From the NCBI GenBank assembly GCA_016932965.1, contig JAFGBW010000039.1, positions 2,140 to 66,139 on the forward strand: 64,000 nt of DNA. The letters run 5' to 3'. A program made the translations under genes and the position numbers. The notes beneath the pieces were generated by a model. The model made no database searches. It was not told the origin of the DNA and was given only the letters and a program-made list of their open reading frames with translations. Every line of letters begins with the position of its first letter. Positions within the stretch are counted from its first letter, which is position 1. This document shows, piece after piece, positions 17,501-58,580 of the stretch. The DNA comes from Candidatus Auribacterota bacterium. Lineage in GTDB: Bacteria; Auribacterota; JAFGBW01.

Positions 17501-18115
17501 GCGGTGTTCCAGGATTTTATCGGTATCAAGCATTCGTCTCATCACGTCATCAGGAACCACTTCTATTTTTGAGACTTCATGGGATGTCCGGAATCCGTCG
17601 AAAAAATGAAGGAAGGGGATCCTGGAGTCCAGGGAAGCAGCCTGGGCGATGAGGGCGAAATCCATGGCTTCCTGAACGGACGCGGAAGCCATGAGGCCGA
17701 ATCCGGTGGAGCGCACTGCCATGACGTCACTGTGATCTCCGAAAATAGACAGGGCATGTGTGGCCACGGTTCTGGCCGAGACATGGATGACAACAGGCGT
17801 TAATTCTCCGGCGATTTTAAACATATTCGGGATCATCAGTAACAGTCCCTGGGAGGCAGTGAAAGTGGTGCCTAATGCGCCTGATTGGATGGCTCCATGG
17901 AGCGCACCGGAGGCTCCGCCTTCGCTTTGCATTTCCACTACACGCGGAATGGTTCCCCAGATATTGGTTTTGCCTTCTGCGGCCCATGCGTCAGCCCATT
18001 CTGCCATGTTGGAGGAAGGGGTGATCGGATAAATGGAGATCACTTCATTGATGCGGTATGCTACATAAGCAACGGCTTCATTGCCGTCGATGGTTGTAAA
18101 GTTTTTTTCTTTCAT
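14540..18115 (-). CDS. nifJ: Pyruvate:ferredoxin (flavodoxin) oxidoreductase, single-polypeptide form
   Basis: 1191 aa. Two ferredoxin-type CxxCxxCxxxCP motifs (CIQCGKCSIVCPH, CTGCSVCTDACP). A TPP-binding C-terminal domain with GGDGWAYDIGYGGLDH. Confidence 0.9.
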   Translation of the reverse strand: MKEKNFTTIDGNEAVAYVAYRINEVISIYPITPSSNMAEWADAWAAEGKTNIWGTIPRVVEMQSEGGASGALHGAIQSGALGTTFTASQGLLLMIPNMFKIAGELTPVVIHVSARTVATHALSIFGDHSDVMAVRSTGFGLMASASVQEAMDFALIAQAASLDSRIPFLHFFDGFRTSHEVSKIEVVPDDVMRRMLDTDKILEHRKRALSPDHPVIRGTAQNPDVFFQARETCNPYYNACADIVQQKMNEFASQTGREYHLFDYHGAKDAERVIILMASGCEPVHETVDHLLSQGEKVGVLKVRLYRPFDMKRFVDSLPATVQKIAVLDRTKEPGSPGEPLYLDCVNAFHEAQLLGWGSMKNTPKIIGGRYGLSSKEFTPAMIKGVFDHLDSGHLKNHFTIGIKDDVTHLSLPYDPQFSTESNKVTRAIFYGLGSDGTVGANKNSIKIIGENTDNYAQGYFVYDSKKAGAVTVSHLRFGSNPIHSTYLISQANFVACHQNLFLEKYDMLSNAADKGTFLLNSPYGPNEVWNHLPKEVQETIIAKKMKFYVIDAYKVAKETGMGQRINTIMQVCFFAISGVLPKNEAIEEIKKAIKKTYGKKGDDVVKKNMDAVDQTLAHLSEVKVPNKVTSTFTMPPAVAEDSPVFVKEVLGEIIAGRGDLIPVSKFPADGTFPTATSQYEKRNIALEIPVWDPATCIQCGKCSIVCPHGVIRMKTYDPKLLEKAPPSFKSADVKAGASKGMKCSIQVSPEDCTGCSVCTDACPAKNKTDPSKKAINMAPQPPLRAAEKENWKYFLSLPDADPRLLKTNVIREQQLMRPLFEFSGACGGCGETPYLKLISQLFGDRMIASNATGCSSIYGGNLPTTPWAVNAQGRGPAWSNSLFEDNAEFGFGFRLTIDKMIEFSSELLMKLSSQVGQELADFILKSQQKTEAEIYEQRERVAELKKILEKMNSPEAKHLLAISDMLVKKSVWILGGDGWAYDIGYGGLDHVLSSGRNVNMLVLDTEVYSNTGGQMSKSTPRAAVAKFAAAGKPAPKKDLGLMAMTYGTVYVARISIGARDDHALKAILEAEAYEGPSLIIAYSHCIAHGIDMAKGLQNEKAAVASGQWPLYRFNPDRIKTGENPFQLDSKDPEIPVEKYLNMETRFKMLGKTKPEEMKHLFAEAQEDVNLRWALYKYLSTIKFPAKEEGK

Positions 18116-30720: not shown

Positions 30721-30758
30721 TTCTCAATTTTCAATTTTCAATTCTCAATTCTTAATTC
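30721..30758. repeat. Tandem heptamer array TTCTCAAT-TTTCAAT-TTTCAAT-TCTCAAT-TCTTAAT (TYTYAAT x5)
   Basis: Read directly. The same heptamer family recurs at 37935-37945 (inverted), 43988-44009, 52425-52455 (inverted), 52524-52540 and 58561-58580. Confidence 0.7.
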
Positions 30759-31236
30759 TGGTATTATTCCTTGGTTTTTTTCGCCCTTTGACTGCATCCA
30801 TCATCTGGATGACCTGTTCAGGGAAAGAGGCTGAAAGTAAGGCGGTTCGTAATGTTTTCCGGCTTAGTATCTTGGAAATGGTGGAAAGAATATCCAGATA
30901 TTCATTGGCGGAACAAACAGGGCCGATCACCAGGAAAACAAAATAGACCAGACCTCCGTCTGATGATTCCCATTCAATTCCCTCTTTGAACCGGGCAAAG
31001 AGAATGCCTGTTTTGTTTACGGCATCTGTCCTTCCATGCGGGACAGCGAGGCCGTCACCCAATCCTGTAGAGGTTTTCATTTCTCTGGTTAGAACAGTAT
31101 TGATAACCAGATCACCGATGTTCTCGGGAAGAGAACGGCAATAATGCCGTGTGAGGCATTCGAGCACTTCCCATTTCGTGCCTTTTCGTGACTCCAGAAG
31201 GATTCCCTGATCAATGAGATATTCACTTAACTTCAT
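30745..31236 (-). CDS. ptsN: PTS EIIA(Ntr)-type nitrogen regulatory protein PtsN-like
   Basis: EIIA-2 domain with GLAVPHGRTD phospho-His motif, about 160 aa. The ORF track extends to 31278; start chosen at MKLSEYL. Confidence 0.65.
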   Translation of the reverse strand: MKLSEYLIDQGILLESRKGTKWEVLECLTRHYCRSLPENIGDLVINTVLTREMKTSTGLGDGLAVPHGRTDAVNKTGILFARFKEGIEWESSDGGLVYFVFLVIGPVCSANEYLDILSTISKILSRKTLRTALLSASFPEQVIQMMDAVKGRKKPRNNTRIKN

Positions 31237-31454
31237 TTTTTTTCCATAAGTCGTTATGTGAAGGACAATCCCCCTCATCTAATAAAGAATATAAGGATGT
31301 CTATCAGAGATTAAATGATTTTAGAGAAGATGGTCAATCTAGAAGTAGCTTAAACCATCTCCTTTTCATCACAAAGGAGTTGACGCGTGGAAGCAGCAAC
31401 TATCTATCATTTACTAAAATAGGTAGATCACCGTTAAAGTTTTTTGAGTTGTGC

Positions 31455-31512
31455 AATTTGACAGATACATGAGTATCAAAAATTAGTATTTCACCACGGA
31501 GAACACGGAGGG
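31455..31512. repeat. Intergenic repeat family 1, copy A (TTTGACAGATAC-N30-TTCACCACGGAGAACACGGAGGG)
   Basis: Aligns with 36765-36822 (copy B1): identical TTTGACAGATAC, and 21/23 identical in the CACCACG[A/G]AGAACACG[A/G]AGGG block. The -35-like TTGACA is at 31458-31463. Confidence 0.65.
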
Positions 31513-31616
31513 AATTAGAATAAAATTGAATTGAAAGTTTTGAGTGATGAATTGGAATGTGGAATGTCATCCTTTGAAAGATCTGTGCTTCCTGCTGTTT
31601 GTTGAAAAAATGGGAA

Positions 31617-32656: not shown

Positions 32657-33526
32657 TCAGGAGCTGGAAGAGTGTTTGAAATTTCTTCGTTCTTCTGAAA
32701 CACGCGATAAAAAGCGCTGGATCGCCGCAGGATTTTTCCCGGAAAGCAATTGCCGGAAGACTCGGAACTGTTTTTCAAAAACAGCCGTGGTTTTGAGGAT
32801 TTCCCGGCGGTTTTCCTGGAAAATGCCTGTCCATAGTTCGGCGGAGCTGGCCGCGATTCGCGTCATGTCTTTGAAAGAGCCTGCGGCGATATTCAGGAGA
32901 TCCGGCAGCCGGTTTTTTTGTTTTAAAAGGGAGTCCATGAGAACAAAAGACACGACGTGCGGGAGATGTGAGATCCATGCGACGGAAGTGTCGTGTCCTT
33001 CAGGAGTCATGATGAAGACCTTGGCCCCGAGTTGTTTCCAGAATTTTTCAGCCCTTGGCAATGCCCAATCCGGGGTGTTTTTTTCCGGGGTCAGGATACA
33101 CGGGGCCCCCCGATAAAGACCTGGTACAAAATTATTAAAACCAAATTTTTCCGTTCCTGTCATAGGATGGCAACCCAGGAAACCCGCCTGCTTTCCCACA
33201 ATGCGGCTGCATGCCGAAACCACGGGTTTTTTGACACTCCCCACGTCCATGACCAGTGACCGGGACGAGAGGAAAGGCAGGATTTTTTTTAACAGTTGAG
33301 GGATGAGACTGACCGGAGTGCACAGGATCACGATTTCCGCGTCTTTTACAGCCTTCTCAATGCAACGGGTGGCAACATGCGCCAGTTTCAACCGGATCAA
33401 ATCGGGTATGACTTCCTCCCGTCTCACCAGGCCGCAGACTTCTTTTGCCAGTTTATAACGGATGAGGGTGTGCCCCAGGGAGGCCCCCATGACGCCCATG
33501 CCGCATATCGTAACTTTATTGAACAT
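32657..33526 (-). CDS. tyrA: Prephenate/arogenate dehydrogenase
   Basis: VTICGMGVMGASLGHTL is a Rossmann GxGxxG. PDH-like C-terminal dimerisation region. Start taken at MFNKV. Confidence 0.75.
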   Translation of the reverse strand: MFNKVTICGMGVMGASLGHTLIRYKLAKEVCGLVRREEVIPDLIRLKLAHVATRCIEKAVKDAEIVILCTPVSLIPQLLKKILPFLSSRSLVMDVGSVKKPVVSACSRIVGKQAGFLGCHPMTGTEKFGFNNFVPGLYRGAPCILTPEKNTPDWALPRAEKFWKQLGAKVFIMTPEGHDTSVAWISHLPHVVSFVLMDSLLKQKNRLPDLLNIAAGSFKDMTRIAASSAELWTGIFQENRREILKTTAVFEKQFRVFRQLLSGKNPAAIQRFLSRVSEERRNFKHSSSS

Positions 33527-33652
33527 TTTGATTTTTTCTTTTAGATTTGATTTTTGCATGAAAAATGGTCAATTGGCGATAGAAATTTTTAACTTTTATT
33601 TTTTAGCATAATGTCTTAAATATGTCCGGAACAAAATAGATAGGGAAGACGC

Positions 33653-34684
33653 ATGATCATAGGTTTGACAGGCCGTAACGGTTCAGGAAAAAGTACGGTG
33701 GCTGAATTTTTGATTCATCGGGGTTTTCAATATTATTCATTATCGGATATCATCAGGGAAATCCTTTCAAAAGAAGGAAAGGAATTTTCCCGGGAGAATC
33801 TGATTGAAACCGGTAACAGTCTTCGTTCCACCATGGGGGCGGCCGTTCTTGCGGAGAAGACGGTTGAAAAACTGATGCCGGATCGAAATTATGTCATTGA
33901 TTCCATCCGGAATCCGTCAGAAGTGGAGCGGCTGAGAAAGGTAAAAGGTTTTAAACTCATCAGGGTGGAAGCTCCCACCCGGGTACGGTTTGAACGCTGT
34001 AAATCACGCAACCGAGAGAAGGCGGATCAAGATCTGGACTCTTTCAAAAAGCTCGAGAAGAAGGAGCTGAAAAGTCCTGATCCTGTTTCCCAGCAGCTGG
34101 AGAAGACCGGAAAAATGGCGGATTATATCCTGAGAAACAGCGGTTCGCTGGAGACTCTTCATGAGCAGGTAATCGAAATCTTGAAAGAGGTGACAAAAAA
34201 AATTTTCAGGCCGGGCTGGGACGAGTATTTCATGAATATCGCGAGAGTGGTGGCCCAGCGTTCCAATTGTGTGAAAAGGCATGTGGCTGCGGTCATCGTT
34301 CGTGATAACCGGATCATATCTACGGGCTACAACGGCACTCCCAGAGGGATCAAAAACTGCAATGAGGGAGGATGTCCCCGGTGCAACAGTTTCGGGGTAT
34401 CGGGGGAAAATCTGGGAGAATGCCTCTGTTCCCATGCGGAGGAAAATGCCATCACACAGGCAGCTTATCATGGGGTGTCCATCAGGGATGCAACATTATA
34501 TACTACCTTTTCACCCTGTCTCATATGCACTAAAATGATCATCAATTCCGGTATTCGGGAAGTGGTCTATGACTCCCGTTATTCCTTGAATGCCCTGGAG
34601 CTTCAGCTTTTGAAAGAAGCGGGGATATCCGTCAGAGCGCTCAGAGAGCATCGGGATTTCCCCGATCCGTCTGCCGGCAGATGA
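33653..34684 (+). CDS. Fusion protein: N-terminal P-loop nucleotide-kinase-like domain + C-terminal dCMP/dCTP deaminase (zinc) domain (AvcD/DcdV-like architecture)
   Basis: Walker A GLTGRNGSGKST (nt ~33662-33697). Walker B-like NYVIDSIRN. Deaminase zinc motifs CSHAEENAI -X24- PCLICTKMI (nt ~34420-34540), matching the (H/C)AE-X24-36-PC-X2-C dCMP deaminase signature. Confidence 0.7.
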   Translation: MIIGLTGRNGSGKSTVAEFLIHRGFQYYSLSDIIREILSKEGKEFSRENLIETGNSLRSTMGAAVLAEKTVEKLMPDRNYVIDSIRNPSEVERLRKVKGFKLIRVEAPTRVRFERCKSRNREKADQDLDSFKKLEKKELKSPDPVSQQLEKTGKMADYILRNSGSLETLHEQVIEILKEVTKKIFRPGWDEYFMNIARVVAQRSNCVKRHVAAVIVRDNRIISTGYNGTPRGIKNCNEGGCPRCNSFGVSGENLGECLCSHAEENAITQAAYHGVSIRDATLYTTFSPCLICTKMIINSGIREVVYDSRYSLNALELQLLKEAGISVRALREHRDFPDPSAGR

Positions 34685-34687
34685 ACG

Positions 34688-36733
34688 ATGATGAATCCTG
34701 ATTCTTTTGTTTCATTGATTGAAAAAGGGGAAATCTTCATACAGGATGGTTTCCTGCAGGAATTTCTTTCGTTGACCAGGGAACATCAGGTCTTATTTTT
34801 AAGGGAATTGATTCGTATTTCGGAACGAGACATCATCCCGGGCAGTTTCAGGACCTACGATTTGAGGATTGAAGCAGCCCGTCTTCCCAATCATGTCGTT
34901 TTTTATCTGGGGTTAAAAGCAGGGCCGATATTTAGAGAGATGACTCTGGGTCCGGACGGAAGATCGCTCATGATCGGAGTAGGCAGAGCGTTTGAAAAGG
35001 CCAGGCCTGGAAGTCATCGGATTCAACGCTGCTATATGAACGCATTGGCCCTGACCGGAGCCCGGGTCGTGGACCTGGGGGTCACAACCACCCCGGATAT
35101 TTATTTCGGACTCGCGTACCTGCTTCATCAGGGGCTCCACGTGGCGGTCAACGTGTCGGCCAGCCATAATCCGAAAAAAGACACCGGACTGAAACATTGT
35201 ATCCGGGACAGGGAAGGGTTCATTTACTCCATTTCCTCTGATCAGATGTCCCGGCTCAAAAATCATGTTCTGCCCGGGAAAAAAGAAAAAATACAGAGTG
35301 ATGCCTTTCTTTTAGACACGGATTTTCATTCGCTGGAAGTTTTTTCCGTTGATCATCAGATGCTTCCTGATGAAAATACCCTGAGCCGGTTTCATCATGC
35401 TTTCATTGTCGCCTTCGGACTCCTGGGGAAAAAAGCCATGAATGAAATGACCGTCCGTTATCAGGGTGATTTTTACCGGGTTCTTTCTTCACTGATTCCC
35501 CCGGAAAAACCGGATCAGTTGATCCCCGGATTGTTGAAATGGTTTGAAAAGCCGTCCGGGGAAATTCGGAAATGGCTGGAGTTGTCTCCGGATGTTTCTT
35601 TTCCCGGTGCCTGCGGGGAGAAGCCGTTGAAGGACATGGTTGTGGTTTTAGATCACGGCAGGGGGACGGCTTTCAGAACCATGGAAATTTATTCTGTGCT
35701 GGGCGCCCATGTCATCTGCGTGGATGAGGAAAGGGGGTATAATCCGTTGGAGTCGGGAAACCAGATGCACTGGAGAAAAGCGGTTCTGAAAGCTGCCGGA
35801 GATTTTCCCGGCAGGGAAGTCATCGGCCTGGCCCATGATGAAGATGGAGACCGTCTCGCGGTCATGCGTTCTGACGGGATCAACGTGGAAGGAGACCGGC
35901 TGCTCGTCATTTCCTGCAGGCAGATGGAACCCTCGGAAAAAAAACCGATTGTGATCACAGAAGTCAAATCGAGACCCGAGACAAGGAAGGCCCTGGAGGA
36001 TTCCGGCGTCGTTCCTGTGATTGCACCGACAGGGTTCGCCTTCATCAAAGAGACGGCCATTATACTGGAGAAGAAATTCAGGGAATTCCATGCCTGTTCG
36101 GAAAGCCCGGCGATCCTGAGACTTCACGGAAAGGAAATCAACCTGACAACAAACCTGCCTGTGCAGATGTGGGCGGAACTCAGCGGGCATTTCGGATTGA
36201 GCCAGGGATTGTCCTGGTTTTTTGATGATGCAACCCTCATGGCTGTGGATCTGCTTTTGGGTCTTGAAAAAAAAATTCAATCCGGAACCAGGCCCGGACG
36301 GGCGCTCATTTCTCTGGATGAAAGTTTTCCAAGGCATCCGAGTTCAGGTGAATTGAATATATTTCTCCGGACAACAGATCCGGAGTATGTTCCGACTTCC
36401 GAAGAAAAAGAGGCGTTTGTAGCCTTGTTTGCAGAACTTTTTTCCGCTGATCCGGCAGTGGATCATCTTGATCGTACGGATGGGGTTCAGATTTTTTTTA
36501 AAGACAGTCAGGGGGAATACGGCGGATGGATTCTGATTAGAAAATCCAACAATGAGGACAAGCTGGTTGTGGTGTCGTCAGCCCCCACAAAAGAACAACT
36601 GCATCATGTGGAACAATGCTTTCTGGAAAAAGCGCGTGCTCTTTCTCTTTCTCCTATTTCCGGGCTTGTGCTGACCCAAGAAGAAGAACAGGGAACAACC
36701 CGGAAAGCGGAACCGTATTTTTTGAATCGCTAA
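34688..36733 (+). CDS. alpha-D-phosphohexomutase superfamily protein (PGM/PMM-like, divergent, ~90-aa N-terminal extension)
   Basis: Active-site loop VNVSASHNPKKDTGLK (TASHNP-type phosphoserine), GVTTTPDIYF, Mg loop LAHDEDGDRLAV (DxDxDR). The start codon is 4 bp after the stop of the kinase-deaminase gene. Confidence 0.65.
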   Translation: MMNPDSFVSLIEKGEIFIQDGFLQEFLSLTREHQVLFLRELIRISERDIIPGSFRTYDLRIEAARLPNHVVFYLGLKAGPIFREMTLGPDGRSLMIGVGRAFEKARPGSHRIQRCYMNALALTGARVVDLGVTTTPDIYFGLAYLLHQGLHVAVNVSASHNPKKDTGLKHCIRDREGFIYSISSDQMSRLKNHVLPGKKEKIQSDAFLLDTDFHSLEVFSVDHQMLPDENTLSRFHHAFIVAFGLLGKKAMNEMTVRYQGDFYRVLSSLIPPEKPDQLIPGLLKWFEKPSGEIRKWLELSPDVSFPGACGEKPLKDMVVVLDHGRGTAFRTMEIYSVLGAHVICVDEERGYNPLESGNQMHWRKAVLKAAGDFPGREVIGLAHDEDGDRLAVMRSDGINVEGDRLLVISCRQMEPSEKKPIVITEVKSRPETRKALEDSGVVPVIAPTGFAFIKETAIILEKKFREFHACSESPAILRLHGKEINLTTNLPVQMWAELSGHFGLSQGLSWFFDDATLMAVDLLLGLEKKIQSGTRPGRALISLDESFPRHPSSGELNIFLRTTDPEYVPTSEEKEAFVALFAELFSADPAVDHLDRTDGVQIFFKDSQGEYGGWILIRKSNNEDKLVVVSSAPTKEQLHHVEQCFLEKARALSLSPISGLVLTQEEEQGTTRKAEPYFLNR

Positions 36734-36764
36734 TCTTCGGTCACCACAGGTTTTGGACTCTTAA

Positions 36765-36934
36765 AGTTTGACAGATACGGAAGCATCTTAAAAATAATTA
36801 TCACCACGAAGAACACGAGGGGTAAAAAGAGTTATGAGTGTTGAGTTTTTTTAAGTTTTGAGTTTAAATAAAATTATATTAGTAAACTCATTACTAAAAA
36901 TTTTTTCAAATGTACTTCGTGTTCTTCGTGGTGA
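36765..36934. repeat. Intergenic repeat family 1, copy B: TTTGACAGATAC + 18-bp perfect inverted repeat arms TCACCACGAAGAACACGA (36801-36818) / TCGTGTTCTTCGTGGTGA (36917-36934) with 98-bp AT-rich spacer
   Basis: Read directly. The arms are exact reverse complements. The left half aligns to copy A at 31455-31512. MITE-like or structured-RNA-like. Confidence 0.7.
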
Positions 36935-37048
36935 AATAAAAATATTTAAATATAAAATAAATATGAATGTTATACCATATTCAGTGGCTCATATAAAGAG
37001 GCTATGAGCTGATAATAATTATAAGCTACATAAAAATAATTAAAGAAA

Positions 37049-37081
37049 TTGTTTGACAGAGGAACTATCATATAATATAAT
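37049..37081 (+). promoter_or_regulatory. Near-consensus sigma70-type promoter: TTGACA (37053-37058) -17- TATAAC, with a perfect TATAAT overlapping at 37071-37076
   Basis: Read directly. It lies about 55 bp upstream of the GGAGGA ribosome-binding site and ATG of the twin-HTH gene. A third TTTGACAGA occurrence (also at 31458 and 36768). Confidence 0.55.
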
Positions 37082-37135
37082 CTATTTCTAACATAATGAA
37101 ATGAGTTTTTTGCAATAAGAGATTTGGAGGAAACA

Positions 37136-37885
37136 ATGACAAGGATCATGACAATTGGCAGTCGGGCAATCCGTGAAAGGGGACAATATTTTCATAATGA
37201 TGAAAATGAATTATCCAGGCCGGTCGCGCAATCAGCAGGCTCTCAACAAGACTCAGTGACAGGCGGCGGTGAGTCCATTGCTGAAAAAAAATCGTTTAGT
37301 CATCAGGAATTGATGGCCAAACAGGCTGAAGTAAGAAAAGAACTCATTAAGACCATGTTCAGGAAATATCAGGAATACCGGACCCTGCAGAAAGTGGCTT
37401 CTGATTATGGGTACACCCGTGAGCGTATCCGTCAGTATTTTGCCATAGGAAATAAACTGGGGATCATTGATTACAAGCCTTTCAACCGGCAGAACTTTCA
37501 GAGAATAAAAAATGAACTGACCAAGGATCGCCTGATCAAATATTTGAATGAAATGGGGACAATCCGCCGTATTTCCGAGGAATTGAATGTGGCAGTCAGT
37601 CATGTGAATCGCCTGATCAAATTATATAAATTGAATCTGTCCCAATTCAGGAGGAATTACCTCAAAACCGAAATATGCAAACAGTATTACACCATGGTGG
37701 AACAGCTGGGAGGCAAGCACCCATCCACTTACGATCTCTTGCTCATTAAAAACGGCCGGAATCTCTGGGCAAAAATTTCAAGGAATTGGGGAACCGTAAA
37801 AAAATTCCGGGAAGAGCAGCATATCCAGCTGGCAAGAAAATCAAGAAGAAGAAGAAAGAACAAGAATCTTCCTCCGGCTCAATGA
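37136..37885 (+). CDS. Twin helix-turn-helix protein with two sigma-70 region-4-like modules; putative transcriptional regulator
   Basis: RTLQKVASDYGYTRERIRQYFAIGNKL contains the sigma region 4.2 TRERIRQ hallmark. A second HTH is GTIRRISEELNVAVSHVNRLIKLYKL. Basic C-terminal tail. AT-rich gene. Start taken at the ATG after GGAGGA; the ORF track gives 37124. Confidence 0.5.
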   Translation: MTRIMTIGSRAIRERGQYFHNDENELSRPVAQSAGSQQDSVTGGGESIAEKKSFSHQELMAKQAEVRKELIKTMFRKYQEYRTLQKVASDYGYTRERIRQYFAIGNKLGIIDYKPFNRQNFQRIKNELTKDRLIKYLNEMGTIRRISEELNVAVSHVNRLIKLYKLNLSQFRRNYLKTEICKQYYTMVEQLGGKHPSTYDLLLIKNGRNLWAKISRNWGTVKKFREEQHIQLARKSRRRRKNKNLPPAQ

Positions 37886-37955
37886 GGTTATATTTTTCTC
37901 GAGATTTTTAAGTCTTGAGAGATAAATGATAATGAATTGAGAAATATTAAATTTG

Positions 37956-37993
37956 CCCTCTTTATCCCCTAGGTGATAAAGAGGGCTTTTTTA
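37956..37993 (+). terminator. Rho-independent terminator CCCTCTTTATC-CCCTAGGT-GATAAAGAGGG-CTTTTTTA
   Basis: 11-bp perfect stem, 8-nt loop and U-tract, 70 bp after the twin-HTH stop. Confidence 0.6.
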
Positions 37994-38091
37994 TGCCTGT
38001 CTGATTTTGATAATTCTTTTATTTTCATGAATAGACTGAAGCGGAATCGGTCTGTTTGGAAAAAGAGTGAATCTCCGAAATGATTGACCCC

Positions 38092-38120
38092 TTGACAAAG
38101 TAGATATTTACAAGTATTAT
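38092..38120 (+). promoter_or_regulatory. Near-consensus sigma70-type promoter TTGACA -17- TATTAT upstream of the GWD-like gene
   Basis: TTGACA at 38092-38097, 17-nt spacer, TATTAT at 38115-38120. The start codon is at 38162. Confidence 0.5.
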
Positions 38121-38161
38121 TAATATGCTTATGTTTTGAATCTATTGTCAGAGAAAATTAT

Positions 38162-41100
38162 ATGATAGGTCACAAGAATTTTTTTATTTGCATGATTGCC
38201 TGGTTTTTATCGACCGGATTTTTATGCCAACCGGTTCAATGTTTTTCGCAATCTGTGGATTCTTCTTTTCTGGCTCCTTCGCATTCAGCCCAAGACCTGA
38301 CCCCCATCATGGTATTAGCCGGAAAAATGCAGGGAAATCAGCCTGTTATCTGGGATGTTTCTGCAACAGGAGTGAATAAAAAAGTAATCATTGTTGTTAA
38401 GAGCAGAGAGAGAGTGCATGTTCACTGGGGTAAAAGCCGCTACGGGAATTGGGAAATTCCCCCGGAAGCCATTTGGCCGGATCACACAACAAAGATGGAT
38501 GATAAGGCGGTGCAAACAGCCTTACAGCCTGTTTCGGATAATATCCGGGTTTTTTCAGTCACTATTCCCAACTCCATGGAATTCAATGAACTGGAATTTG
38601 TGCTTTTCTATCCTGACCGTCCCCCTCACAATCAGTGGGTTAAAGACGGAAACAGGAATTATAAAATTACCGTTAAGGACGATCCTGGACTGGAAGAAAT
38701 GGCTGGTGAAACCAAGAGTTGGATTCACACCATGATAGAAGGTGAAAGAGGGGAGCATGGCCGGAGTCTGATGCATAGAAATAAATTTGTTTGCGAATTG
38801 CTTGGCAGATTTCCTCATTGCAAAGAATTTTTCAGCACCCTGGCAGTGTACATGAGATACAACCGGCTTGGAGTCCTGCCGTGGCAGAGAGGTTATAATA
38901 CGACGCCAAGAGAAATGACTGCGAGCGTTGACAGATTGAATGAGACTATTTCAAGATTGATGATCACGGATTCTAAACATTATTCGATGGTCAGATTATT
39001 GATGAGTTTTTTAACCCTTGGCGGAGAAAATGGACAGCAAATCCGCGATAATATTTTGCATATTTTACAGAATAACGGGGTCCGGGGGACTACTTTTCTG
39101 GAACAATGGCACCAGAAATTACACAACAATGCCACCCCTGATGATATTGGAATCTGTGATGCTTATCTGGCTTTTTTAAGAAGTAATGGAGATAAAGGTA
39201 CATTTTATCGGGTCTTATGGGAGGGGTATGGAATTTCCAGGGAAAAACTGGCAAGTTATGAGAGACCCATTACGGTTGAGCCTGAGTTTTACGGATATGC
39301 CAAAGATGGTTTGATCCGTGATTTTGAAGCTTATCTGGAGCTCAACAGGAAAGTCCATTCCAGGGGTGATTTATTCCGGGCAAAAGCAAATGCTGAAAAA
39401 TATGATGCGCCAGGATTGAATAAGCCGCTGTGGGATTTTTTTACTTTGAAATATCAGGTGGAGACCTCACAGGTGGAGCAAGGCTGGGTTAAATTATTGG
39501 ACAAGCTGGTTGAAGTGCGGAGAGAGCTGCGGAGACTCATTTTTGCGGGAGGCGACTGGTGGTATCTGAGGGATTTAGTATTTTTGGATTTAAGTCTGGA
39601 AGAATATTCCAGGACCATTTCTGACAAAATCTCAGAACAAGTTAACGACCAGGAAATCATGTGGGAAGCAGCTAGGAATTTAAGCCTTCAACTTGAAAAT
39701 ATTGTACTCAGTTCTGATGCAGACGATTGGGATATGCTGGAAATCAATATCATAAAAAGAGAATGGGACAAGATTCAACAAGAGCCGATTAAAGACGAAC
39801 AATGGCATTTGCATTCCAAAGCTATTCTGGACCGTTTGCAGAGAGTCATTGGAGACCGTATTCAAAAGGAGACTGAACTGCTTCAGCCCAAGGCTGAACT
39901 ATTAGGAAACCAGGTCCTTGCAGAAAAAGACAAATGGGCCATTCCTCTTTTTAGCGAAGAACTGGTCCGGGGTTCCCCTCTATTTTCTATAGCCAATATT
40001 TTGAAACCCCTGCGCAAGGCAGCCAGACAAAAAGCTCTCTTGCCTCCCTGGGATGTCATTGTGCCTGGCAGAGTTTCTGCAGAAGTGAGGAAAGCAAAAT
40101 CATTGAAAGAAATTTTGGCAGGAATACAACCGGGAGACAGGATCATTGCTGTTGTCAAAGACCTGGATGGAAGCGAAGACATTCCTCCCCAGATAGCAGG
40201 GATTATCAGCCAAAGGGAAGTGGATATCACATCGCATCTGGCTGTCAGGGCAAGGAATTTAAAAGTTCCCTTTGTTTTCATTGATTCGGAAGAAGAATTT
40301 CAGACCGTTTATCAAAATGACCGTCCTGTCAAACTTCATGTTTTTGAAGGCATGACAAAACCCTGGCAGGTTTATACAGGGGATTTAAGCATGGTCAGTA
40401 TCCCTGCCGAAATTCCTGAAATCACCATCCCTTCTGTTGATCTGACAGCAGAACCTGCCTGTCTAAAAATACAGGAATTCACAATGGATAAGGTCGGGCC
40501 AAAAGGTTCCCAGATAAAGCAATTGATGGAAGACGTGAGTGAGAAGAAAGACGTGACAATTCCTAATTCAGTTGATGTGCCGTATGGAGTTTATCAGGCA
40601 GTGCTTAAAGATAAAAACAATTTAGAAATAGCACAACAAATACAAGAGTTAATTGCAAGAGCGGACGCTGAAACTGCAAGAGATGCCGCCAAGCAGTATA
40701 TTGCGGAGATAGAGAGATTGACTAAAACATTAGTGATACCTGATGAGATTTTAAAGCCTATTTTAGATGCGATAAAACAAGAGATAGGAGAGGATAAAAT
40801 TCTGATGGTGCGTTCTTCAGCTAACGGGGAGGATCTGGAAAAATACGCCGGCGCAGGTTTATATGAATCTTATTTTAATGTTTCATTGGATAAGGTGGAG
40901 CAACATATCAAATGGGTGTGGGCTTCCAAATGGACGGAACGCGCGTACTGGAGCAGGCGCGATATGAAAATTGACCATGACCAGATCCATGTTTCAGCGC
41001 TTATTCAGGAATGTTTTCATTTTGATTATTCCTTTGTGATTCATACGGTCAATCCGGTTAACAATGATCCGGATGAAGTCATGATTGAGGTTGCCCAGGG

Positions 41101-41512
41101 GCTGGGGGAAGCCATCGTTGCCAATTATCCGGGGAGCGCCTATCGTTTCATTTATAATAAAAAAACACATGAAGTCAGGCGCATCGCCTTTGCCAGTAAA
41201 AGTCTGAAATGCATTATCAAAGACGGCCAACTGCAATTGGTTTCAGTTGACTACAGCGATGATTTCCTGGCAGGACCAAAAGAGCAATGGGAGGAAGTGA
41301 TAAGGTCTATCGGTGAAGCAGGATGTTTGATTGAAGAAAAAAGGGGAGGGAATGCCCAGGATATCGAAGGAGGGTATTTTTCCAGGTATGCAGACAAGCC
41401 GGATATCCTGGGTTTGGTCCAGACGAGGGACCAGATGATTGTAGAGATTGTAACGGAGAAGCCTGTTGGACCAGCGGCGGAACCACCGGACGCAGTTTTG
41501 ACTGCGGCATGA
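38162..41512 (+). CDS. alpha-glucan,water dikinase (GWD)-like protein: N-terminal hydrophobic export/anchor segment, CBM-like domain, large unknown middle region, phosphohistidine domain, C-terminal PEP-synthase/PPDK-type nucleotide-binding domain
   Basis: The His-domain motif DITSHLAVRARNLKVPFVF (nt ~40222-40280) resembles the plant GWD catalytic-His motif SHVSVRARN. The nucleotide-binding domain shows MVRSSANGEDLEKYAGAGLYESYFNV, VWASKWTERAYWSRRDMKIDHDQIHVSALIQE and VAQGLGEAIV (PPDK_N-like, nt ~40500-41330). The His domain precedes the ATP domain, as in GWD and unlike PEP synthase. Confidence 0.75.
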   Translation: MIGHKNFFICMIAWFLSTGFLCQPVQCFSQSVDSSFLAPSHSAQDLTPIMVLAGKMQGNQPVIWDVSATGVNKKVIIVVKSRERVHVHWGKSRYGNWEIPPEAIWPDHTTKMDDKAVQTALQPVSDNIRVFSVTIPNSMEFNELEFVLFYPDRPPHNQWVKDGNRNYKITVKDDPGLEEMAGETKSWIHTMIEGERGEHGRSLMHRNKFVCELLGRFPHCKEFFSTLAVYMRYNRLGVLPWQRGYNTTPREMTASVDRLNETISRLMITDSKHYSMVRLLMSFLTLGGENGQQIRDNILHILQNNGVRGTTFLEQWHQKLHNNATPDDIGICDAYLAFLRSNGDKGTFYRVLWEGYGISREKLASYERPITVEPEFYGYAKDGLIRDFEAYLELNRKVHSRGDLFRAKANAEKYDAPGLNKPLWDFFTLKYQVETSQVEQGWVKLLDKLVEVRRELRRLIFAGGDWWYLRDLVFLDLSLEEYSRTISDKISEQVNDQEIMWEAARNLSLQLENIVLSSDADDWDMLEINIIKREWDKIQQEPIKDEQWHLHSKAILDRLQRVIGDRIQKETELLQPKAELLGNQVLAEKDKWAIPLFSEELVRGSPLFSIANILKPLRKAARQKALLPPWDVIVPGRVSAEVRKAKSLKEILAGIQPGDRIIAVVKDLDGSEDIPPQIAGIISQREVDITSHLAVRARNLKVPFVFIDSEEEFQTVYQNDRPVKLHVFEGMTKPWQVYTGDLSMVSIPAEIPEITIPSVDLTAEPACLKIQEFTMDKVGPKGSQIKQLMEDVSEKKDVTIPNSVDVPYGVYQAVLKDKNNLEIAQQIQELIARADAETARDAAKQYIAEIERLTKTLVIPDEILKPILDAIKQEIGEDKILMVRSSANGEDLEKYAGAGLYESYFNVSLDKVEQHIKWVWASKWTERAYWSRRDMKIDHDQIHVSALIQECFHFDYSFVIHTVNPVNNDPDEVMIEVAQGLGEAIVANYPGSAYRFIYNKKTHEVRRIAFASKSLKCIIKDGQLQLVSVDYSDDFLAGPKEQWEEVIRSIGEAGCLIEEKRGGNAQDIEGGYFSRYADKPDILGLVQTRDQMIVEIVTEKPVGPAAEPPDAVLTAA

Positions 41513-41524
41513 TGAGAATGTGTC

Positions 41525-43204
41525 ATGGATAATAGCAAACCAATTCAGAAACGATTGAATCTCCCGGTTTTTCTTTTAGGAAAAGCTGGAAGAATCAGGG
41601 GTCAATCAATTTTTTTAATCCTATCCGGTTTCATCAGCAGTCTTCTTATTTTTTTCCATACACCGGCGTTTGCTGACCTCTGTTTATTCTGTCTTGCCCC
41701 ACAAGAGCAGACTTCAAGAGAAATGGCGGTTTTTACTTCCATTTCGAAAGAGCTGAACAGGGAAGGGCAAGTGGCTTTCAGAAGCATTCAAAGACCAGGC
41801 GAGGTCGATCTGATTGCTGCGGTGAAGTCAAGTGAGCCCGTCTATCTCCACTGGGGAGTTTCCCGTTTCGGGAAATGGGAGATGCCGCCTGAAGACATCC
41901 GGCCTTTGGATTCAATACCTAATCAAAAAGGGACATCTCTTCAAACCCGGATGCAGTCTTTATCGGGTGATATCCGGTTTGTAAAAATAACTGTGCCTGA
42001 ACATGTTGATTGCAGCGAAATCGCTTTTGTTTTTTATTATCCGGAACGGGCGAAGGAGCAACAGTGGGTTAAAGACGGAGACAAGGACTATTATCTGGCA
42101 GATATTCACACATTCCCGGAATTAATTAGCTGCAATGAACAGACAAGGACCCTGGAATTCAACAAACATGAACTGAAAAAATGGATCATTGGATTGATTG
42201 AAAGAGGACTTCTTCCCATGCTGTTTTTTGATTTTGATGATACGTTGAATCTGGGGTATGGCGGATATATGCCTGACGAATCCATTGGGGCTTTGGATCA
42301 GCTTGTCAATGCCGGCGGGATCATTGCCATTCATTCAGGGATAGATTTATTATGGGGAAGCCAGAAAATTCTCCGTTTGACGCAATCCAGATTTCCGTTT
42401 CATTTTCTGGTCTTGAGCACGGGTAAAGATATTTTTGCCTGGAGTCATCAGCATAAGGCCTATTTAAAACTTCCATTCTCAGGAGACAATAAGAGCGATG
42501 CTTTAATGAAACTGGCCTCTTTTTTAGGAATTCTGCCTCATCAAATGGGGTATTGCTGTGATTTTCCCGGAAGCGGTGATAAACAGGACGGGATTGATGA
42601 TCCGACATTATCTTCAAACATCGGTTTCATAGCCAATGTAAGTCCGTTTGGAAGAATGATGAAACTTCCCGCTGAATCTTCAACCAGACTGATTCAGCCT
42701 GATGATAACCCTTTGACAAGGCAGGCTAAAGGCGCCTGTAATTACATGGCTGCGGCAAGCGATGTGTTGCGACAATATGGTCAAACACCGAATCAAGCCA
42801 TCAGTGATATCAACACCAAGTTACTGGCCGCTGGTTTTAAACTGCCGGTCCTGGAACCCCGTGTGGATCAATATACTGTCTGGACCAAGGACAATCAGGT
42901 GTCAGCTATCCCTGAAGGACATGTTCTGCGTGTTGAGACTGACAAACCCGGAATGGTCTATGCCGGAAAAGAAGGAATCAGCGGCTGGGAACGAACGTAC
43001 GCTATTCCCCTAAGATTAGAAAGCGGTAAATGGATAGCTGATATTTTAGACCCTGAAGTCAATACCTTTACTTTTATCGAGAACGATCCTCTTGATGAAA
43101 AAAAGGTCGGGTGGCTAGGAAAAAAAGGCGCAAATTATTATTTTTCCAGATACGCTGTTCCATCCGGGACGTCTCATGGGTCCCAAGCTTCGTTTTCAGC
43201 CTGA
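41525..43204 (+). CDS. CBM-like domain + HAD-superfamily phosphatase-like protein with N-terminal signal peptide
   Basis: The N-terminal hydrophobic segment ends in AFA|DL (AxA signal-peptidase site). Residues ~93-195 are about 45% identical to residues ~74-175 of the preceding dikinase (LHWGVSRFGKWEMPPEDI...QWVKDGDKDY vs VHWGKSRYGNWEIPPEAI...QWVKDGNRNY). The HAD motif I FFDFDDTL is at nt ~42225-42245. Confidence 0.6.
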   Translation: MDNSKPIQKRLNLPVFLLGKAGRIRGQSIFLILSGFISSLLIFFHTPAFADLCLFCLAPQEQTSREMAVFTSISKELNREGQVAFRSIQRPGEVDLIAAVKSSEPVYLHWGVSRFGKWEMPPEDIRPLDSIPNQKGTSLQTRMQSLSGDIRFVKITVPEHVDCSEIAFVFYYPERAKEQQWVKDGDKDYYLADIHTFPELISCNEQTRTLEFNKHELKKWIIGLIERGLLPMLFFDFDDTLNLGYGGYMPDESIGALDQLVNAGGIIAIHSGIDLLWGSQKILRLTQSRFPFHFLVLSTGKDIFAWSHQHKAYLKLPFSGDNKSDALMKLASFLGILPHQMGYCCDFPGSGDKQDGIDDPTLSSNIGFIANVSPFGRMMKLPAESSTRLIQPDDNPLTRQAKGACNYMAAASDVLRQYGQTPNQAISDINTKLLAAGFKLPVLEPRVDQYTVWTKDNQVSAIPEGHVLRVETDKPGMVYAGKEGISGWERTYAIPLRLESGKWIADILDPEVNTFTFIENDPLDEKKVGWLGKKGANYYFSRYAVPSGTSHGSQASFSA

Positions 43205-43456
43205 AAATATCCCAAGTTTTTCTAACATACGATGTTTTGTTTTGACAAAACATCGTACACCTTTGTTAAGAAATTCAACACCAGTACAAATGCGAACAGC
43301 ATTTTTCGTTTGAATTCGATAATTTTCTGGTCATTAAGAATATATAACTTATTGCTAGTGAACAGGATATAAAAATGTCTATCTCAGATATTGCTCTTGG
43401 CACAAATATTGTTTCTTTCTGGTCTGCATTGGAAATAACAACTAAGGAAACCAGCC

Positions 43457-43942
43457 ATGATCATGACCATTTTAAAACAGACCATACGGTTTCATCTGGA
43501 TGAGAAAGAACATGAAATAGCCAGTGTTTATGCAGAATTATACAGCAAGATGGTCGTGCAATATGTCAATAAACGTGAACAAGCCCTGGCTGCATTGAAA
43601 GATCTAGCCTATGAATTTCATATATATGGCCATCATCGCAGTGCGTTAAAATATTACCTGGAAGTCAAAAAACAGTATGGGGATTCAGCCTTAAATGACC
43701 AGGATATCCTTTATCTGGCCGAAAGCTGCGAAAAATTGGGACAGGCCAACGAGGCGCTTTTGGAATATCAGAGGCTGATTCGATATTATCCTTATTCTCC
43801 GCACGTAAAAATGGCCTATGAAAACATCAGCCGGATTTATCAGTCGTGTTCCAATCAGAATAAAGCGGAAATGTTTAAGAAAATGGCCCTGCTTGAACCC
43901 AATTGGGATGCAACCCCTGTTCCTGCAAAGAAAGTGTCCTGA
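43457..43942 (+). CDS. Small TPR-like hypothetical protein
   Basis: 161 aa, helical repeat character (..ALKYYLEVKKQYGDSALNDQDILYLAESCEKLGQANEALLEYQRLIRYYPYSPHVKMAYENISRIY). AT-rich. Confidence 0.4.
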   Translation: MIMTILKQTIRFHLDEKEHEIASVYAELYSKMVVQYVNKREQALAALKDLAYEFHIYGHHRSALKYYLEVKKQYGDSALNDQDILYLAESCEKLGQANEALLEYQRLIRYYPYSPHVKMAYENISRIYQSCSNQNKAEMFKKMALLEPNWDATPVPAKKVS

Positions 43943-43987
43943 GCAGGCAGGCTTAGAGTGATTTGGCTTTGATTTATTTTGTTCTTT

Positions 43988-44009
43988 TCTCAATTCTCAA
44001 TTCTTAATT
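43988..44009. repeat. Tandem heptamers TTCTCAAT-TCTCAAT-TCTTAAT
   Basis: Same family as 30721-30758. Located at the right edge of the AT-rich block. Confidence 0.65.
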
Positions 44010-44081
44010 TTTTTCTTACAATGAGCTTTAAACGAACTATAATCCGTTATACTCCCGGATATTTTTTAAAAGAAATATAAA

Positions 44082-45407
44082 ATGCTTTTGATTAAAAATG
44101 CCGAAGTCGTTTCCTCCAATAGAACCGACACTGCCGATGTCTGGATTGAAGGAACAACTATTGTTCAGGTAGGGGGGAGTTTAAAAACCATTCCTGTTGA
44201 AACCATTGATGCAAAAGGATTGATGCTCATTCCAGGCGTCATAGATACACACGTCCATTTCCGTCAGCCTGGAATGGAATGGAAAGAGGATATTAAAAGC
44301 GGCTCTTCTGCAGCCGCCGCCGGGGGAGTCACTACGGTCTTTGACATGCCTAATACGATACCTCCCACAGTAGATGAGAGTTCATTGACCGCCAAGAGAA
44401 AGGCTTTTTCTGAACAATCCCTGGTTAATTACGGAATTTTTATCGGCGCCGCTTCCTCCAATATGGATTTTTTAAACACGGCCGAAAATGTTCCGGGAAT
44501 CAAGGTGTTCATGGGTTCTTCAACAGGTTCGCTTCTTCTGTCAGACGAAAAAGAGCTTGAAAAAGTGTTTGCCTGCGGGAGCCGTTTGATAGCCGCGCAT
44601 GCGGAAGATGAAGCGCTTCTCCTTTTGAACAAGGAAAAATACCGCTCTGCAAACCAGGCTTCCTTCCATCCCCTCATACGAAGTCCGGAAACCGCTTTAA
44701 CGGCCACAGTGAAAGCGGTTCAATTCTCCCAGAAGTACCAGCGGCGTCTTCATCTGCTTCATTTGAGCACTCAGGAGGAGGTGGAATATTTATCAGGGAT
44801 CTATCATAAAAAACATATCACTGCGGAAGTCACTCCGCATCATCTGGTTCTGTCTTCGCCGGAATGTTATGAACAATTAAATACATTTGCTCAGACGAAT
44901 CCGCCTGTCAGGGAAAAACGGCATTCACAGGCCCTCTGGACTGCTTTGAAGAAAGGAGTCATTCATACGATTGCCTCTGATCATGCACCCCATTTAGTTT
45001 CAGAAAAAGAGAAAGGTTATGGCCTGGCCCCTTCCGGTGTACCAGGTGTGGAGACGTCTCTTCCCCTGATGCTGAACCAGGTCAATAAAGGACAATGCTC
45101 CGTGCATGAAATTGTCAAATGGATGTGTGAAAATCCAGCCCTGATGTTCCGCCTTAAAAATAAAGGATTCATTAAAAAAGGATTTGATGCCGACCTGGTA
45201 CTAGTTGACATGAAGAAAAGAAAAAAAGTCCAAAACGGGCGATTGTTCACCAAACCCAACTGGAGTCCTTATGACGGCTGGACGGTTCAGGGATGGCCGG
45301 TCATCACTTTTGTGAATGGACAAATTGCTTTTCGTGAGGGGGAAATCATGACCAGCACACTGGGAAAAGAAGTGGTTTTTAATAAATATGAATTCAGGAG
45401 TCAGTAG
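44082..45407 (+). CDS. pyrC: Dihydroorotase-like cyclic amidohydrolase
   Basis: GVIDTHVHFRQPG is the metal-binding HxH. DMPNT and SDHAPH motifs. Size 441 aa. Confidence 0.7.
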   Translation: MLLIKNAEVVSSNRTDTADVWIEGTTIVQVGGSLKTIPVETIDAKGLMLIPGVIDTHVHFRQPGMEWKEDIKSGSSAAAAGGVTTVFDMPNTIPPTVDESSLTAKRKAFSEQSLVNYGIFIGAASSNMDFLNTAENVPGIKVFMGSSTGSLLLSDEKELEKVFACGSRLIAAHAEDEALLLLNKEKYRSANQASFHPLIRSPETALTATVKAVQFSQKYQRRLHLLHLSTQEEVEYLSGIYHKKHITAEVTPHHLVLSSPECYEQLNTFAQTNPPVREKRHSQALWTALKKGVIHTIASDHAPHLVSEKEKGYGLAPSGVPGVETSLPLMLNQVNKGQCSVHEIVKWMCENPALMFRLKNKGFIKKGFDADLVLVDMKKRKKVQNGRLFTKPNWSPYDGWTVQGWPVITFVNGQIAFREGEIMTSTLGKEVVFNKYEFRSQ

Positions 45408-52523: not shown

Positions 52524-52540
52524 GTCTTAATTCTCAATTT
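52524..52540. repeat. Heptamer copies TCTTAAT-TCTCAAT
   Basis: Same family. Inverted-orientation copies (ATTAAGA) occur at 52425-52455 in the same spacer. Confidence 0.55.
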
Positions 52541-52626
52541 TAAAATTTTATTTTTGTTCTTTTTCAATAAGCTATAACAAAACTATGTCGAAATAGAATC
52601 ACGGATTTCTTCAGATCCAAGACATG

Positions 52627-58560: not shown

Positions 58561-58580
58561 AATTCTCAATTCTAAATTAT
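58561..58580. repeat. Heptamer copies AATTCTCAAT-TCTAAAT
   Basis: Same family, in the dxr-rseP spacer. Confidence 0.5.

Follow-up and report, generated by a model that had tools for sequence, protein, structure and literature searches.

Reversible glucan phosphorylation has been treated as a matter of plants, algae and animals (PMC13011383; PMC12892837). In starch breakdown, a cycle of phosphorylation and dephosphorylation opens the ordered glucan, with roles for GWD (alpha-glucan, water dikinase) and for the phosphatases SEX4 and LSF2 (PMC12892837). All of the glucan phosphatases named in PMC13011383 and PMC12892837 are dual-specificity phosphatases, and one of these papers raises the possibility that the glucans of bacteria are entirely free of phosphate. 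Here, we describe a block located at positions 36734-44081 of a 64-kb contig (the whole stretch of DNA that was analysed, hereafter the window) from a metagenome-assembled genome (MAG) of Candidatus Aureabacteria (= Auribacterota, SURF-CP-2), in which the gene for a GWD-like dikinase is followed by a gene for a protein combining a CBM45-like module with a HAD domain. By analogy with the plant system, and with a probability that we put at about 0.5, these two genes would form an operon for reversible glucan phosphorylation that uses a HAD phosphatase instead of a dual-specificity phosphatase.

Four genes were found in the block, all on the + strand: a gene for a twin helix-turn-helix (HTH) protein (37124-37885), the GWD-like dikinase gene (38162-41512; 1116 aa), the CBM45-HAD gene (41525-43204; 559 aa), and a gene for a small TPR protein (43457-43942; 161 aa). 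The gene calls of the original prediction (twin-HTH regulator, GWD-like dikinase, CBM-HAD phosphatase, and small TPR protein) were broadly borne out by profile matches. As part of the explanation that we favour, and at the same even odds, the block would consist of three transcription units, namely the regulator gene, the two-gene dikinase-HAD operon, and the small TPR gene.

The dikinase, which is 100% identical to NCBI JW774_01715, exhibited the GWD domain order in Pfam searches. It was characterized, from the N-terminal to the C-terminal end, by one copy, and not two, of the CBM45-like domain Ig_N_CWD1 (PF23166; residues 69-170, E 3.6e-16), a central domain (residues 182-623) matching PDB 9ha9_A (E 1.4e-64; 9ha9/9qvi, potato/chloroplast GWD), a GWD1_pHisD domain (PF22973; residues 630-719, E 4.4e-15), and a PPDK_N ATP-binding domain (PF01326; residues 777-1091, E 2.9e-38). 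The catalytic histidine, His692, lies within the motif SHLAVRARN, which corresponds to the catalytic-histidine helix of potato GWD1 (H992-G1000; PMC13553574), and a similar motif was present in 93 of 120 listed homologs. At every sequence-level test of GWD-family membership the protein came out as a member, and phosphorylation of glucans at C6 is predicted.

A total of 393 bacterial and metagenomic homologs of the dikinase was detected, many of which are annotated as alpha-glucan, water dikinase by JGI. A second dikinase, encoded elsewhere in the same MAG (P0002), was 54% identical to it, while all other homologs were at most 34% identical; apart from this paralog, the named homologs come from other phyla. 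When compared with the plant central domain, the window dikinase scored 221 bits, the paralog 146 bits, and an ordinary bacterial homolog (P0004) 300 bits. The two Aureabacteria proteins form a divergent branch of the family.

Five other bacterial GWD loci were compared with the window. Glycogen genes (GH57 branching enzyme, GT5 synthase, GH13, GH77) adjoined the GWD gene in three of the five, which supports an alpha-glucan substrate. Glycogen synthesis is also encoded by published Auribacterota MAGs (PMC9324843), and a GH13 gene is present in the window. In all five loci, the gene directly 3' of the GWD gene encoded an AP_endonuc_2 TIM-barrel protein (L001, 11628-15176; L003, 11482-15153; L019, 11473-14910; L002, 11574-12386; L018, 7718-9802). 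Such a fixed partner slot points to a functional link, and in the window the slot is filled by the HAD protein, whose gene lies 13 nt downstream of the dikinase gene. As a separate observation, the AP_endonuc_2 (xylose-isomerase-like) partner was fused in three of the five loci to a further dikinase module with phosphohistidine and ATP-binding domains. Such a conserved pairing of two dikinases appears to be undescribed and recalls the plant GWD/PWD pair.

The HAD protein was composed of a signal-like N-terminus, a CBM45-like domain (residues 82-191; Pfam, E 5.4e-12), a HAD core (residues ~230-400), and a C-terminal beta-sandwich (residues ~445-545). A word-indexed search retrieved only the protein itself, and 51 matches were obtained when 1.84 billion representatives were searched exhaustively with HMMER. 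Residues 85-192 matched CBM45 domains, and the module of the neighbouring dikinase gave the best match (93.6 bits at 42% identity); all other CBM45 domains scored 63.5 bits or less, including that of the paralog (61 bits). Moreover, a 30-nt stretch was still 87% identical at the DNA level. These alignments show the CBM45 of the HAD protein to be a copy of that of the adjacent dikinase.

Residues 210-540 belong to a rare family, the standalone members of which are 337-357 aa long and 34-41% identical. In an alignment of nine members, the HAD motifs were invariant: motif I (DxDxT; D236, D238, and T240), the (S/T)G position of motif II, which reads HSG in the window protein, motif III (K323), and motif IV (DFPG...GIDD; D346, D358, and D359). 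When this alignment was supplied to AlphaFold, residues 200-559 were modelled with a predicted local distance difference test (pLDDT) score of 82.3 and a predicted template-modelling (pTM) score of 0.84; a single-sequence model of the full protein (pLDDT 37.5) was unusable. The model exhibits a Rossmannoid HAD fold, in agreement with Foldseek, with an insert of ~25 residues in beta conformation at the cap position, then two helices and a beta-sandwich of 7-8 strands. A minimal cap insert is typical of HAD members that act on large substrates. The C-terminal sandwich showed a CBM-like sequence pattern, with a terminal W-x-G-x-NY motif. No NCBIfam model matched the protein. Pfam scans found no dual-specificity phosphatase domain, which places it outside the SEX4/LSF2/laforin family. 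The HAD fusion protein is an orphan and would be a previously undescribed starch-binding phosphatase.

Two sigma70-type promoters had been claimed in the block, and both were present, with 17-nt spacing in each case. The first (P1, TTGACA-17-TATAAT; 37053-37081, + strand) matched the consensus hexamers at 12/12 positions and lies upstream of the regulator gene; the second (P2, TTGACA-17-TATTAT; 38092-38120, + strand) matched at 11/12 positions and lies 42 nt upstream of the dikinase open reading frame (ORF). Each ended 42-43 nt before the next + strand ORF, and both are putative promoters. Sites with at least 11/12 matches numbered four in 64 kb, against a mean of 1.9 in locally shuffled sequence, and P1 and P2 were the only intergenic ones. 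The clean terminator claimed at 37956-37993 was also recovered, as an intrinsic terminator on the + strand (37955-37993) with a stem at 37955-37986 (12 pairs, 6 of them G-C; 8-nt loop) followed by TTTTTT; it is predicted to end the regulator transcription unit. A further hairpin with a 13-bp stem (43228-43257, + strand), located 24 nt past the stop codon of the HAD gene and followed by no proper T-run, may mark the end of the operon. The spacers yielded no Rfam match at E <= 0.1 and no convincing small ORF.

The regulator gene was called mechanically from a TTG at 37124, and its likely start is the ATG at 37136, behind a GGAGG at 37126-37130, which gives a protein of 249 aa. Pfam matches were found to Sigma70_r4 (residues 82-104) and to HTH_23/HTH_29 (residues 140-169), and the C-terminal tail is basic. 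The protein was ~28% identical to a 'sigma factor-like helix-turn-helix DNA-binding protein' carried, in an unrelated context, on Ca. Manganitrophus plasmids. It is the obvious candidate for the controller of the operon, a target that we infer. In addition, the 10-mer ATCATATAAT was present in two copies in 64 kb (0.21 expected), one overlapping the -10 region of P1 (37067-37076, + strand) and the other inverted across the dikinase start codon (38157-38166, - strand). The 10-mer may serve the adjacent regulator as an operator, a suggestion that is too weak to claim.

The analysis shows which domains and catalytic motifs are present, the fold, how the operon is laid out, where the CBM45 came from, and the motifs of the promoters and terminator. 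As we picture the cycle, with its substrate, its cellular location and the coupling of both activities inferred, P2 would drive co-transcription of the dikinase and phosphatase genes, and the dikinase would bind an alpha-glucan via its CBM45. By analogy with plant GWD, His692 would be autophosphorylated from the beta-phosphate of ATP and would then pass the phosphate on to glucosyl residues. The phosphatase, tethered on the same polymer by its copied CBM45 and perhaps also by the C-terminal sandwich, would hydrolyse the glucan phosphate esters, with Asp236 as the nucleophile and Mg2+. Such a cycle would loosen ordered alpha-glucan and give hydrolases and phosphorylases access to it. A bolder version, in which the pair is the first HAD-type glucan phosphatase working with a bacterial GWD, and an independently evolved plant-like system operating perhaps, in view of the signal-like N-termini, at the membrane, in the periplasm or outside the cell, seems to us improbable.

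Several observations weigh against a glucan phosphorylation cycle. Both enzymes have Sec-like N-termini, and an exported ATP-dependent dikinase would be hard to rationalise, since it would be left without ATP. The HAD sequence fell under family cut-offs (Hydrolase_3, E 0.04-0.12, 12.5-14 bits versus 20.9). As for the C-terminal sandwich, hhalign was suggestive at most of a CBM45 (P = 0.005, probability 7%), and we assigned it to no CBM family. Around the standalone HAD-plus-sandwich relatives, no GWD or glycogen genes were found nearby in ~27 loci, many of them on short contigs, so that the functional link rests on the window operon and on the domain transfer. A literature search found no paper characterising a bacterial GWD and no biochemical data on any. 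Finally, the symmetrised dinucleotide signature of the block was the most deviant of any 7.3-kb stretch of the contig, which leaves room for a foreign origin.

Among the alternatives, horizontal acquisition of the block fares best, and we regard it as doubtful. An island that entered long ago and has largely ameliorated, or that stems from a donor not yet sampled, would have carried the regulator, the dikinase-phosphatase operon and the TPR gene in between the PGM-like gene on the left and pyrC on the right. The signature speaks for it: delta* (x1000) was 63.3 in the block versus a mean of 32.8 (standard deviation 9.1), and the tetranucleotide distance, also the highest in the contig, was 16.5 versus 10.6 +/- 1.6. 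Low CpG (0.71 versus 0.88) and high TpA (0.61 versus 0.50) drove this signature; CpG was under average in all four block genes, with the dikinase gene second-lowest of the 47 ORFs. However, no single block gene exceeded |z| = 2 after length correction, and "typical" composition here refers to the 64-kb contig and its 47 ORFs only.

Base composition, on which the island had originally been proposed in part, gave a different picture. The block had been estimated by eye at 38-40% GC and its neighbours at 57-58%; the computed values were 41.5% for the block, 43.9% for the whole window, 49.2% for the left neighbour (34688-36733), and 45.8% for pyrC. No other stretch of equal size was as low in GC content, but the block was only ~2 standard deviations under the mean, and its coding GC was 43.5% versus 44.8% for the remaining genes. 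The four block genes ranged from 41.2 to 44.3% GC (38.7-49.9% across the genes of the window), and their GC content at third codon positions (GC3) from 0.42 to 0.48 (0.38-0.57 in the window). Karlin codon bias of the four genes against all others gave length-corrected z values of -0.68, +0.50, -0.71, and -0.73. In both GC and codon usage, the block genes were inside the contig range, with nothing atypical.

The claimed AT-rich spacers do exist. The opening one (36734-37123; 390 bp, 26.4% GC) is the longest spacer of the window, and it is followed by spacers at 37886-38161 (30.4% GC), 43205-43456 (32.1% GC), and 43943-44081 (28.8% GC). Together they amount to 1057 bp, or 14.4% of the block versus 6.8% window-wide, and three of the five longest spacers of the window fall in the block; all 25 window spacers average 32.8% GC. 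The lower GC content of the block is therefore due to its larger share of intergenic DNA, which is AT-rich across the whole window. The composition step at the left edge (36.7 kb) arises mainly because tyrA, the kinase-deaminase gene and the mutase gene are among the GC-richest genes; these three (32657-36733) form a local GC-rich patch (48-50% GC, GC3 0.53-0.57; window mean 44%). The appearance of an "AT-rich island" is thus mostly that of long AT-rich spacers around genes of ordinary composition.

Other features bear on the same question. In favour of an island, the dikinase subfamily was found only in this MAG, the HAD fusion is an orphan protein, promoter-like sites of at least 11/12 are intergenic in the block only, three of the five longest spacers fall there, and a dCTP deaminase of the defence type is encoded 2 kb from it. 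Against it, no tRNA was found in the 64-kb window, no Pfam integrase or transposase matched any of the four block ORFs, and there were no specific flanking repeats, direct or otherwise, around the block. The 54% identical paralog in the same genome and the in situ duplication of the CBM45 imply long residence, that is, a long evolution in one lineage. We found no positive evidence of recent transfer. Whether the block is an island we cannot tell: the evidence originally cited for it fails, and a modest signature anomaly remains.

The original prediction had also taken the heptamer TCTCAAT as a bracket of the block. It was present in 19 copies in the window, against 19.35 expected. A longer tandem-heptamer form, AATTCTCAATTCT, occurred exactly at 30740, 43992, and 58561, and with one mismatch at 52529 (sites 30726-30759, 43985-44011, 52529-52541, and 58561-58580). 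All four copies were intergenic and, in one orientation or the other, stood upstream of a gene start at a distance of 14-135 nt; the CTCAATT-like tandem heptamer at the right end of the block (43982-44018, + strand) is one of these four and not an island boundary. As the longer form occurs in four separate spacers, it is a dispersed spacer motif rather than a bracket, and a role of TCTCAAT as a boundary was ruled out by its chance frequency and scattered copies. With up to 2 mismatches, the AATTCTCAATTCT core had 15 matches versus 6.8 expected.

A further alternative, which we consider unlikely, concerns the substrates, and in it the two enzymes would not run a cycle on one polymer: the HAD protein could be an ordinary phosphatase or mutase of small sugar phosphates, with phospho-maltodextrins or hexose phosphates as examples of its substrates, or the dikinase could act on something other than storage alpha-glucan. 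The best structural matches of the HAD model were indeed small-molecule sugar phosphatases, its standalone relatives are found among housekeeping genes, and the usual partner of bacterial GWDs is a sugar-isomerase-like TIM barrel and no phosphatase. However, the CBM45 copied from the dikinase and the second beta-sandwich point to a polymer-bound substrate, the modelled insert at the cap position has only ~25 residues, and the GWD homologs of other bacteria have glycogen genes as neighbours.

The N-termini suggest another reading of the pair, in which export or anchoring at the surface would bring both proteins to an alpha-glucan outside the cytoplasm, for instance phosphate-bearing starch of algae or plants. 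The phosphatase would then clear phosphate that blocks amylases, and the function of the dikinase-like protein would be something else than phosphorylation driven by ATP. The signal-like regions (window 38162-38310 and 41525-41725; residues 1-45 of the paralog) consist of a positive n-region, a hydrophobic core of 15-17 residues and an AFA/D or CFS/Q site (a slash marks the site). The dikinase begins with MIGHKN-FFICMIAWFLSTGFLC-QPVQCFS, and the HAD protein with a Lys/Arg-rich n-region followed by IFLILSGFISSLLIFF-HTPAFA/DL. After this segment, a (C/F)LAP motif is common to the dikinase, its paralog and the HAD protein, and the conservation of the region between the paralogs argues for its translation. 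Ordinary bacterial GWDs and standalone HAD proteins have neither such N-termini nor the (C/F)LAP motif (a comparably hydrophobic N-terminus was seen in 3 of 120 other homologs), and similar clear signal peptides occur in other proteins of the window. Nevertheless, the ATP-binding and histidine domains of the dikinase look intact while no source of ATP is known outside the cytoplasm, and the signal-peptide calls were made by sequence inspection. We hold an extracytoplasmic role for the pair to be rather improbable.

The remaining origins can be dismissed briefly. A direct eukaryotic origin of the dikinase was rejected as unlikely, ordinary bacterial homologs being closer to plant GWD than it is; and descent of the block proteins from a mobile element, a phage or a defence system was unsupported, as no block protein matched a PADLOC defence family, PHROGs gave one weak DNA-binding match (E 4e-4) to the regulator and no other phage-family match, and the regulator, which had no match in phage genome records, has distant plasmid homologs only.

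Besides the operon, the opening spacer of the block contains a dispersed intergenic element (36765-36945, + strand), in which a promoter-like TTGACA-16-AAAAAT (10/12) is followed by a long hairpin. Its arms (36801-36818 and 36917-36934) are perfect 18-bp inverted repeats, for which 0.01 chance matches were expected, so that the 'repeat family 1' described earlier is real. The RNA fold of the element was predicted at -50.3 kcal/mol (z = -8.9). The whole ~170-nt element, including TTGACA...AAAAAT, aligned with a degenerate second copy at 31430-31600, and a third, related copy of the 18-bp arm was located at 31491. The second copy sits downstream of ORFs 32475-31617, the rplM-rpsI pair according to the earlier reader. 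The element matched no Rfam family; a gene for a small RNA and a miniature inverted-repeat element are both conceivable identities.

At the right end of the block, the small TPR protein matched Pfam TPR_6/TPR_12 below cut-off, with partial NCBIfam matches of the YbgF/BamD type, and had no signal peptide. Beyond it lies the dihydroorotase gene pyrC (44082-45407, + strand; NCBIfam NF005751, 553 bits, above cut-off). On the left flank, outside the block, the gene at 34688-36733 (+ strand) had been identified as PFOR. It encodes instead a divergent alpha-D-phosphohexomutase (PGM/PMM-like) of 681 aa, with Pfam PGM_PMM_I, III, and IV domains, partial NCBIfam matches to GlmM/PgmG, and the motifs SASHNP, DEDGDR, and ELSGH in its translation; PFOR is encoded 20 kb away (14540-18115). 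Homologs of the mutase in other contigs were 43-52% identical, the best non-self one in a collection of 5.8 billion proteins reaching 52%, and none adjoins a GWD gene. A scan of species-representative genomes gave no match to the mutase, and three homolog loci had zero neighbours in common with the window.

Among 5.8 billion proteins, this divergent PGM-like family of 660-700 aa has only ~10 close members. Two of the three contexts examined had, directly before the homolog and either overlapping it or nearly abutting it, a gene of 365-387 aa without a Pfam match; in the window, this place is taken by a nucleotide-kinase and deaminase fusion (33653-34684, + strand), which stands 4 nt upstream of the PGM-like gene, with the block 2 kb to its right. 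The fusion matched the PADLOC 'dCTPase' model for anti-phage dCTP deaminases (E 1.9e-66, 223 bits) and scored 166 bits against NCBIfam NF041025, under the model cut-off of 400.

A GWD homolog and a phosphatase with a borrowed starch-binding module, encoded in one operon, offer a direct and cheap test of bacterial glucan phosphorylation. If the proposed cycle is real, bacteria phosphorylate storage glucans, and the reverse step has been taken on by another phosphatase fold, the second to be recruited and unrelated to the first. The significance of the locus lies in this testable enzyme pair rather than in a genomic island, which is weak as a candidate. With genomic islands the block shares an accessory-looking gene cluster and long AT-rich spacers and, as a whole though in no single gene beyond |z| = 2, a deviant dinucleotide signature, whereas its GC content and codon usage are normal and it has no mobility gene, tRNA target or flanking repeats.

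Compared with ordinary bacterial GWD operons, the window locus has a dikinase of the same family (~32% identical) and, as they do, a tightly linked downstream partner. The partner differs, being a CBM45-HAD protein instead of an AP_endonuc_2 protein, and the window locus is without adjacent GH57, GT5, GH13 or GH77 genes. In contrast to these operons, it has its own regulator, consensus promoters and hydrophobic N-terminal segments. With plant and algal GWD1 (EC 2.7.9.4; StGWD1), the window dikinase shares the order of CBM45, central, phosphohistidine and ATP-binding domains, and the helix of the catalytic histidine. It differs in being bacterial, in having one CBM45 where the plant enzyme has two, and in its Sec-signal-like N-terminus; it is also more divergent from plant GWD1 than ordinary bacterial homologs are, and its activity is a predicted one.

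The HAD protein can likewise be set against two known groups. Unlike the HAD sugar phosphatases (Cof/IIB, trehalose-6-P phosphatase, sucrose-phosphatase, KdsC), it has a minimal cap insert, is fused to two beta-sandwiches and a signal-like N-terminus, and falls under the Pfam and NCBIfam cut-offs. With SEX4, LSF2 and laforin it shares a CBM-plus-phosphatase architecture, the pairing with a glucan dikinase, and the proposed removal of phosphate (PMC12892837); the carbohydrate-binding module is CBM45-like in the window protein and CBM20 or CBM48 in theirs, and the phosphatase is of the HAD type where theirs is a dual-specificity phosphatase.

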